A DNA stretch of 64,000 nt from NCBI GenBank assembly GCA_964016885.1, contig OZ024761.1, forward strand, positions 11,966,001 through 12,030,000, read 5' to 3'. Source of the DNA: Eledone cirrhosa. Its lineage: Eukaryota. Below the pieces are notes generated by a model. It was not told the origin of the DNA and did not search any database. It saw nothing but the letters and a program-made list of their open reading frames with translations. The translations under genes and the position numbers were made by a program. Below, in pieces: positions 32,554 through 32,965 of this stretch (position 1 is the stretch's first letter; each line of letters begins with the position of its first letter).

Positions 32554-32800
32554 TAAATTGAAACAAAATGAAAACGAAATTTCATTTCTCACTCTTAGTA
32601 TGGCACTTACTTAAATGTAAGTATGCATGTATACGTACATACATATATGTATACAGACGTACAGTAGCATGCACATATATATATATATATATACATATAT
32701 ATATACATATGCATACAGGTACACATACATATATGCACGTATCAGTTTAGCGGCGCTAACGTCGCTTTGTTCGTTTGTAAACAAACTGAACAGCCTGAAT
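32554..32800 (-). repeat. Inverted partial copy (~245 bp) of the 468-bp unit at the head of the array
   Basis: Reverse complement of the unit segment attcaggctgttcag...gtttcaatttat; it lacks the ribozyme. Confidence 0.95.
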
Positions 32801-32965
32801 ATATATGTGCATGCTACTGTACGTCTGTATACATATATGTATGTACGTATACATGCATACTTACATTTAAGTAAGTGCCATACTAAGAGTGAGAAATGAA
32901 ATTTCGTTTTCATTTTGTTTCAATTTATCGTTTTCGGTATGCCTGACCGATTTAACTCACTCAAT

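Follow-up and report, generated by a model that had tools for sequence, protein, structure and literature searches.

A two-armed insertion of a dispersed hammerhead repeat in Eledone cirrhosa, probably formed by Penelope-type reverse transcription of one RNA

Organisation of the locus

The window, by which we mean the whole 64,000-nucleotide stretch of Eledone cirrhosa DNA that was analysed, contains a tandem array of a 468-bp unit, headed by an inverted partial copy of the same unit (Table 1). The array holds at least 22 units. Throughout, position 1 of the unit is the base that follows the predicted ribozyme cut (33084/33085). The composite is made solely of this unit, and encodes neither the reverse transcriptase nor the GIY-YIG endonuclease by which an autonomous element would be recognised.

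An earlier note on this DNA had described an inverted unit at the head of the array, abutting the first direct unit, with both ends of the composite lying in (TA)n/(TAAA) sequence and the array stopping mid-unit at 43307. Measurement bears out this description. The inverted part spans 32553-32800 (248 bp), matches the unit, read as its reverse complement, at 100% identity, and meets the array at 32799-32800 through a 2-nt AT overlap. The flanking tracts are found at 30905-32558 and 43306-43551, and the array ends at unit position 250. The direct arm begins at unit position 183, within a TA run internal to the unit, and the sequence of the head/array junction has a single occurrence genome-wide. 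There are 21 ribozyme-to-ribozyme intervals, 16 of which are identical, while four carry one substitution or a deletion of 1-2 nt, and one crosses the assembly gap. Because of this gap, the length of the array is a minimum, and the head and the far end are joined by scaffolding alone.

The unit occurs at very high depth in sequencing runs X1 and X8. Words of the unit were also found in runs from 15 coded organisms and in one wastewater metagenome, and in run X4, a contig set from one other organism, a single 470-nt contig corresponds to the unit with no differences, at a depth of 7. This contig may reflect cross-contamination or low-copy sharing.

Table 1. Features of the composite and its surroundings (positions in the window).
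Feature	Position	Strand	Remarks
Left (TA)n/(TAAA) target tract	30905-32555	.	
Inverted arm	32553-32800	-	Unit positions 65-312; outer end at site B (fixed long end)
One-sided tail	32553-32614	-	Unit 251-312; absent from the far end of the array
Inner head-to-head junction	32799-32800	.	2-nt AT microhomology
Pre-gap direct arm	32799-35757	+	6.3 identical 468-bp units; starts at unit 183
First of 22 type I hammerhead motifs	33047-33091	+	Predicted cut after 33084
Cut-site-to-cut-site monomer	33085-33552	+	Predicted RNA circle
Assembly gap within the array	35758-35957	.	200 N
Post-gap direct arm	35958-43307	+	15.7 units; far end at unit 250, site A (fixed short end)
Right (TA)n/(TAAA) target tract	43306-43551	.	
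Nearby inverted-arm islands, left of the composite	25557-25752, 27640-27977, 27992-28305, 29149-29421, 29950-30331		
Nearby inverted-arm islands, right of the composite	43552-43775, 43826-43947, 45061-45768, 49234-49425, 50921-51110		

The unit and its hammerhead motif

The 468-bp unit is putatively non-coding, has an internal TA run and lacks an LTR. Every tandem unit carries a type I hammerhead motif, giving 22 motifs at a spacing of about 468 bp. As read from the sequence, the motif has a 7-bp stem I, the CUGAUGA core and GAAA; its stem II carries a U-U mismatch at the base, and its stem III is palindromic and very short. Rfam returned a sub-threshold HH9 match alone (18.5 of 52 bits). Among the loci examined, the common variants of the hammerhead affect the free position 7 of the core, loop II, and a stem I pair that changes from G-U to A-U, which preserves pairing; there is also one U-G flip.

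The monomer at 33085-33552 folds with a z score of -8.5, mostly via a TA/TG hairpin. Matches to miRNA families at the TA hairpin were rejected as low-complexity noise. At window positions 33434-33441 (unit 350-357), and likewise some 110 nt upstream of the predicted cut in every unit, lies what we take to be an octamer motif of the kind typical of snRNA-type promoters. It is altered by an A350G change in both of the hyper-edited loci described below (L149 and L152). A literature search on the snRNA-type promoters of newt satellite 2 returned nothing relevant.

A dispersed family with two fixed outer ends

A pattern search with the 45-nt hammerhead motif gave 8,299 exact matches in the 3.0-Gb assembly, and none for the control. 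The unit is thus dispersed and is not a single-locus satellite. Genome-wide patterns for unit ends that run into TA returned 2,375 ends of one kind (A) and 2,702 of another (B). The composite in the window is one of thousands of young insertions of this hammerhead repeat, whose arms range in length from 0.1 to more than 20 units.

Three sets of sister insertions were compared. The unselected set comprises all 30 clusters among the first 100 motif matches listed. The coordinate set, which overlaps it, covers C1 from 0 to 123.6 Mb and takes divergent neighbours within 10 kb. The junction set comprises 78 divergent junctions in 89 stretches, the window locus included; because 40 of these stretches were picked from the end lists, mostly as A+B pairs, its share of A+B pairs (60 of 62 classified junctions, with 16 more unclassified) is biased, and the set was used for junction statistics alone.

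In the unselected set, the outer ends of arms lie at unit 247-253 (A) or at unit 308-312 (B), about 60 nt apart, with three exceptions (L059, a diverged arm in L045 and a fragment in L046). Of the two-armed insertions in this set, 18 have each outer end at one of these sites, and every one of the 18 combines an A end with a B end. The coordinate set gives the same pairing in 26 of 28 divergent neighbours, the other two being separate insertions. The window locus conforms to its sisters, with the head ending at B and the far end of the array at A. The long arm of an insertion can be either the A-ended or the B-ended one. A short possible A+A pair (L128) is ambiguous, and a B+B call (L133) was rejected, being an A end that lies within an older copy. 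The six convergent neighbours are in every case set apart by TA-rich runs.

These observations bear on the geometry in the earlier note, which proposed to check other arrays of the unit for inverted heads, TA flanks and variable start phase. Inverted heads recur, with 77 further divergent junctions in the 89 stretches, and outer ends run into TA at other arrays as well. The start phase is a different matter, since the outer ends are fixed at A or B and the inner junction alone varies. Nor is the head a truncated inverted 5' end, as had been supposed; each outer end is a 3' end of the unit and lies at one of the two fixed sites. An inverted, 5'-truncated copy beside a direct copy, a tail at one end, and microsatellite or AT-rich targets are all present, and the two-armed layout is the 'inverted copy plus one-sided tail' footprint of Penelope elements.

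The inverted head could, in principle, be an assembly chimera, or the array an old single-locus satellite. No read or contig was seen to span the head junction in a mapping that passed over this repeat-rich part, and a scaffold gap lies within the array. A chimera would nevertheless have had to place the head exactly at B and the array exactly at A, as in sister loci, and an old satellite is at odds with both the dispersal of the unit and the undiverged units at the edges of the array. We regard either reading as extremely improbable.

Inner junctions

The two arms of an insertion meet at inner junctions of variable position. Microhomology, often of 1-6 nt, is seen at 42 of the 78 such junctions and a blunt join at four. 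The other 32 contain additional or mismatched bases, in part just differences from the unit of the window. Inner ends do not pile up at the predicted cut site and are spread over the unit; none of 156 falls at the cut site (unit 1-3), and nine of 156 fall at unit 1-20 (p = 0.22).

Insertions of L1 with an inverted 5' part arise by twin priming, in which divergent arms are both primed from target ends and joined by microhomology. Twin priming of this type at a chance internal site, or alternatively fold-back copying of the first cDNA, would give the same divergent orientation as is seen at the 78 junctions. It would also accommodate the 42 junctions with microhomology and, in L035 and L039, the near-palindromic centres. 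Unlike in L1 twin priming, however, the second end of the unit is a fixed site and the arms overlap in sequence rather than abut, so that the A and B sites largely refute this explanation. As for fold-back, neither arm is contained in the other in 12 of 60 A+B insertions, and in these the second arm is therefore not a fold-back copy of the first. Together, the two variants seem to us very improbable.

Evidence for a single template

Both arms of a locus carry the same haplotype, private changes included. Among 54 young insertions, the changes fixed within a locus comprise 20 A>G against 2 T>C on the ribozyme strand (p = 4e-5), whereas the changes confined to single units comprise 7 A>G against 16 T>C. 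Since two loci account for 16 of these 20 A>G changes, and the count by locus is 6 against 2, this amounts to two strong cases and a weak trend. An extra G in the TA core of the unit was left out of the count, because slippage can add a G.

The two strong cases are L149, with seven A>G changes in 11 of 11 covering units, and L152, with a different set of nine in 11-12 of 11-12 units; in both loci, the changes extend over both arms. The two sets have four sites in common. The word formed by these four edits occurs at four loci genome-wide, and besides L149 and L152 these are two single copies of an older subfamily. Clustered A>G changes on one strand are the mark expected of A-to-I RNA editing that has been fixed by reverse transcription, and the strand bias of the sequence changes seen here would imply an RNA stage.

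A further mark is found in L136, where a 7-nt deletion just before the predicted cut site is present in five of five junctions and in no other locus. It fits the trimming and ligation of a cut monomer. Multi-base deletions just downstream of the cut site occur in single old copies, and a 6-nt deletion at the cut site is present in just one of two junctions, so the L136 scar counts as one case. Taken together, the identical A>G clusters in every unit and the L136 deletion favour rolling-circle copying of one RNA circle. The array in the window has the common haplotype and no private marker; its template must therefore be read from the rest of the family.

Five of the 54 young insertions are mixed, with variants in some units only. 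In L061, two linked changes occur in the second unit of both arms and in no other unit. In L052/L053, the short arm shows a three-unit pattern that the 3' part of the long arm repeats with a shift of one unit. Such patterns can be given by an oligomeric circle, a linear multimer, conversion between arms or later unequal exchange, and a monomer circle accounts for them less well than conversion or a template that is oligomeric or a linear multimer. A94G is present in six of nine units (L055), C9A in two of seven units, which are adjacent (L132), and L033 has a period-2 pattern.

The same Penelope-type double priming might accordingly have used a different template, namely an uncut linear read-through of an array or a circle of dimer or trimer size. 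The in-register heterogeneity common to both arms in L061 and L052/L053, and the partial distribution of A94G in L055, speak for such a template. So do the main in vitro substrate of an anole Penelope-like protein, which was uncut RNA (PMC11167929), and the very short stem III, which suggests weak cutting of monomers, as in the axolotl (PMC7229834). Edits on a linear multimer should nonetheless vary from unit to unit, yet in two loci every one of the 11-12 units, in both arms, has the same seven or nine A>G changes. Moreover, no source array with those A>G sets is found elsewhere in the assembly, and the deletion at the cut site of L136 is private to that locus and present in all five of its junctions. 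We consider a linear or oligomeric template unlikely.

Alternatively, a short insertion with about one unit per arm might have been amplified in place later, by unequal crossover. Some turnover at the DNA level is evident from the sharing of variants by adjacent units (C9A in L132, the period-2 pattern in L033). In addition, local amplification is proposed in a discussion of satellite birth (bioRxiv 10.64898/2026.07.22.740005), and the assembly gap hides the length of the window array. Against this, opposite arms would have to expand separately before acquiring point changes (9 + 2 edited units in L149, 10 + 2 in L152, and 6 + 8 in L116), and the edge units and the inverted arm in the window are identical to the centre of the array. 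Amplification in place is, on this evidence, a quite improbable origin.

Penelope-type machinery in the genome

If a Penelope-like element supplied the enzyme, intact open reading frames with both a reverse transcriptase and a GIY-YIG domain might be expected in the genome, and the earlier note had proposed a search for them. Such frames are present, with open frames of 938, 844 and 1096 codons that contain both. A GIY-YIG search yielded 10,596 candidates, of which 150 were scored, and all 150 match. The three open frames have reverse transcriptase motifs, a C-x4-C-x2-C motif and the endonuclease, although the 938-codon frame has a 6-residue gap in the endonuclease relative to its sisters. This cysteine motif has been tied to the Neptune, Nematis and Naiad groups (PMC8557442). 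The coding copies in L097, L101 and L103 have the same inverted layout as the hammerhead insertions, with one longer end, and lie in TA; the tail in L097 is about 63 nt long (L097:6518-6581). Coding copies at L103:2760-6025 and L097:1349-6581 are near-perfect palindromes of 3-5 kb.

Among the 50 GIY-YIG loci examined of the 150 scored, no extended sequence is common to the unit and the ends of coding elements. A 12-nt word is common to the tail of the unit and the tail of the L097 family (L092, L093, L097, L101, L104). It was spotted by eye over nine comparisons, and 4 of 2000 shuffles reach it; as a lead only, this makes the L097 family a candidate partner of the unit. Unit-like matches near the GIY-YIG loci L086, L102 and L104 were rejected as partner ends, each being a copy in its own right; in L104, whose sequence was read throughout, a TA run separates the end of the coding element from the copy of the unit. 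A common tail fold is not evident across ten families, and a hairpin near the short end is present in some only. The main text of a paper that lists the Penelope families of an octopus does not contain the word 'hammerhead' (PMC13282606).

A model for double-ended copying of one RNA

The composite is made of a young hammerhead repeat, a putative animal retrozyme. Its arrival by retrotransposition, as suggested in the earlier note, is supported by the dispersal of the family, the recurring geometry and the A>G clusters that are fixed in all units. The further suggestion of Penelope-like machinery, TA targets and insertion of a multimer draws support from the same geometry and fixed clusters, and from the open reverse transcriptase and GIY-YIG reading frames. 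A circular RNA template is likely in view of the A>G clusters fixed across units in sister loci. In our judgement, the composite is probably a single two-armed insertion, made by a Penelope-type reverse transcriptase-endonuclease through double target-primed synthesis on a single RNA template, most likely a circle of 468 nt, with the ends joined afterwards.

Under this model, transcripts would cut themselves into monomers at the predicted hammerhead and would then be ligated into circles. A Penelope-type reverse transcriptase-endonuclease would cut a TA run on both strands. Within one enzyme complex, probably a dimer, one cDNA would start at B and the other at A, so that both ends of the target DNA would be extended on the same RNA, and each cDNA would circle the template for 0.1 to more than 20 turns. 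The two cDNA ends would be joined last, giving the variable inner junction. For the minority of mixed arrays, some later turnover at the DNA level or oligomeric templates must be added to this scheme.

We lean, with somewhat less assurance, towards a more specific arrangement, in which an enzyme dimer grips one small RNA circle at the tail element of about 60 nt, primes at each edge of that element, and proceeds round the circle by strand displacement. If this reading is true, the genome contains thousands of records of double-ended rolling-circle reverse transcription, in which scars of RNA editing and ligation mark single template molecules. The inverted copy and the one-sided tail of Penelope elements would then be explained as one event.

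Comparison with known systems

Retrozymes, their proposed copying from circles, and the inverted copies, one-sided tails and TA targets of Penelope elements are all already known. Animal non-LTR retrozymes resemble the unit in being non-coding, AT-rich and tandemly arranged, in having a single type I hammerhead per unit, and in being dispersed, from dimers up to multimers, through genomes that also contain Penelope-like elements (PMC7229834; bioRxiv 10.64898/2026.07.22.740005). The hammerhead of the unit agrees with the axolotl motifs in its stem III, which is palindromic and very short, and in the basal U-U mismatch of its stem II (PMC7229834). Penelope machinery has been proposed for retrozymes in both of these sources, and tandem cDNA copied from a circle was proposed, rather than shown, in the discussion by Cervera and de la Pena (2020, PMC7229834). 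The 2026 preprint (Li, Clavereau and Pollet) also weighs local amplification of retrozyme units at the DNA level.

There are also differences. The unit measures 468 bp, against the 170-400 nt given for animal retrozymes. Two-armed insertions, fixed paired ends and editing marks are seen here and are not described in the available text of PMC7229834 or of the 2026 preprint; the word 'inverted' is absent from the main text of the former, and 'tail' and 'insertion site' from that of the latter. A full-text literature search, covering mainly open-access papers and their main texts, returned no account of retrozyme insertions with paired ends or editing marks.

Endonuclease-bearing Penelope-like elements resemble the composite in having an inverted, 5'-truncated copy beside a direct copy, a tail at one end, and TA or AT-rich targets (PMC8557442). 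Unlike these elements, the unit is putatively non-coding, its tail is about 60 nt rather than 30-40 nt long, and both of its arms can be multimers. The formation of the tandem and inverted structures of Penelope-like elements has been called undefined (Craig et al. 2021, PMC8557442), and the insertion record of the unit makes this open step of Penelope biology testable. The anole PAc protein, a predicted dimer, cuts and extends both strands in vitro on uncut RNA, and starts at two internal RNA sites that bound a tail (Frangieh et al. 2024, PMC11167929). The strict pairing of one A with one B observed here contrasts with the in vitro behaviour of that protein, for which the start site did not differ between strands (PMC11167929).

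The family lends itself to countable genomic tests, namely strict A+B pairing, private variants that the two arms have in common, and edited monomers repeated throughout the units. For an in vitro assay, it supplies a short RNA and two exact start sites.

Nested insertions and neighbouring elements

The internal TA run of the unit is itself a site of insertion. At L145:660-8920 (C1 282.14 Mb), a young two-armed insertion of 4.2 + 13.3 units has interrupted an older member of the 468-bp-unit family within its internal TA run. The two halves of the interrupted run sum to about 100 nt, compared with 87 and 109 nt in neighbouring units of the host copy; L145 can serve as no more than a stand-in for an empty allele. 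Other elements have inserted into the internal TA run of the unit in L117, L119 and L137.

The small elements near the composite had been described as hammerhead elements with the same inverted-arm geometry in (TA)n. In the 10 nearby islands, which were picked by eye (Table 1), the geometry stands, with inverted arms, one of them longer, in all 10, but a hammerhead core is present in just six. In nine islands a TA run lies at or close to the end of the shorter arm; in the remaining one, that arm ends at an (ATC)n tail.

Elsewhere in the window, young minisatellite arrays with periods of 31-123 bp occur at 6448-7059, 8448-8904, 12343-13969, 15403-16249 and 17159-18508, some of them presumably built from SINE-like pieces. 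A weak tRNA-like match at 26889-26952, corresponding to a SINE head, is the sole Rfam match in the window at the gathering threshold. The stretch at 52361-53722, read by eye, is one that we take to be a broken LINE-like reverse transcriptase.
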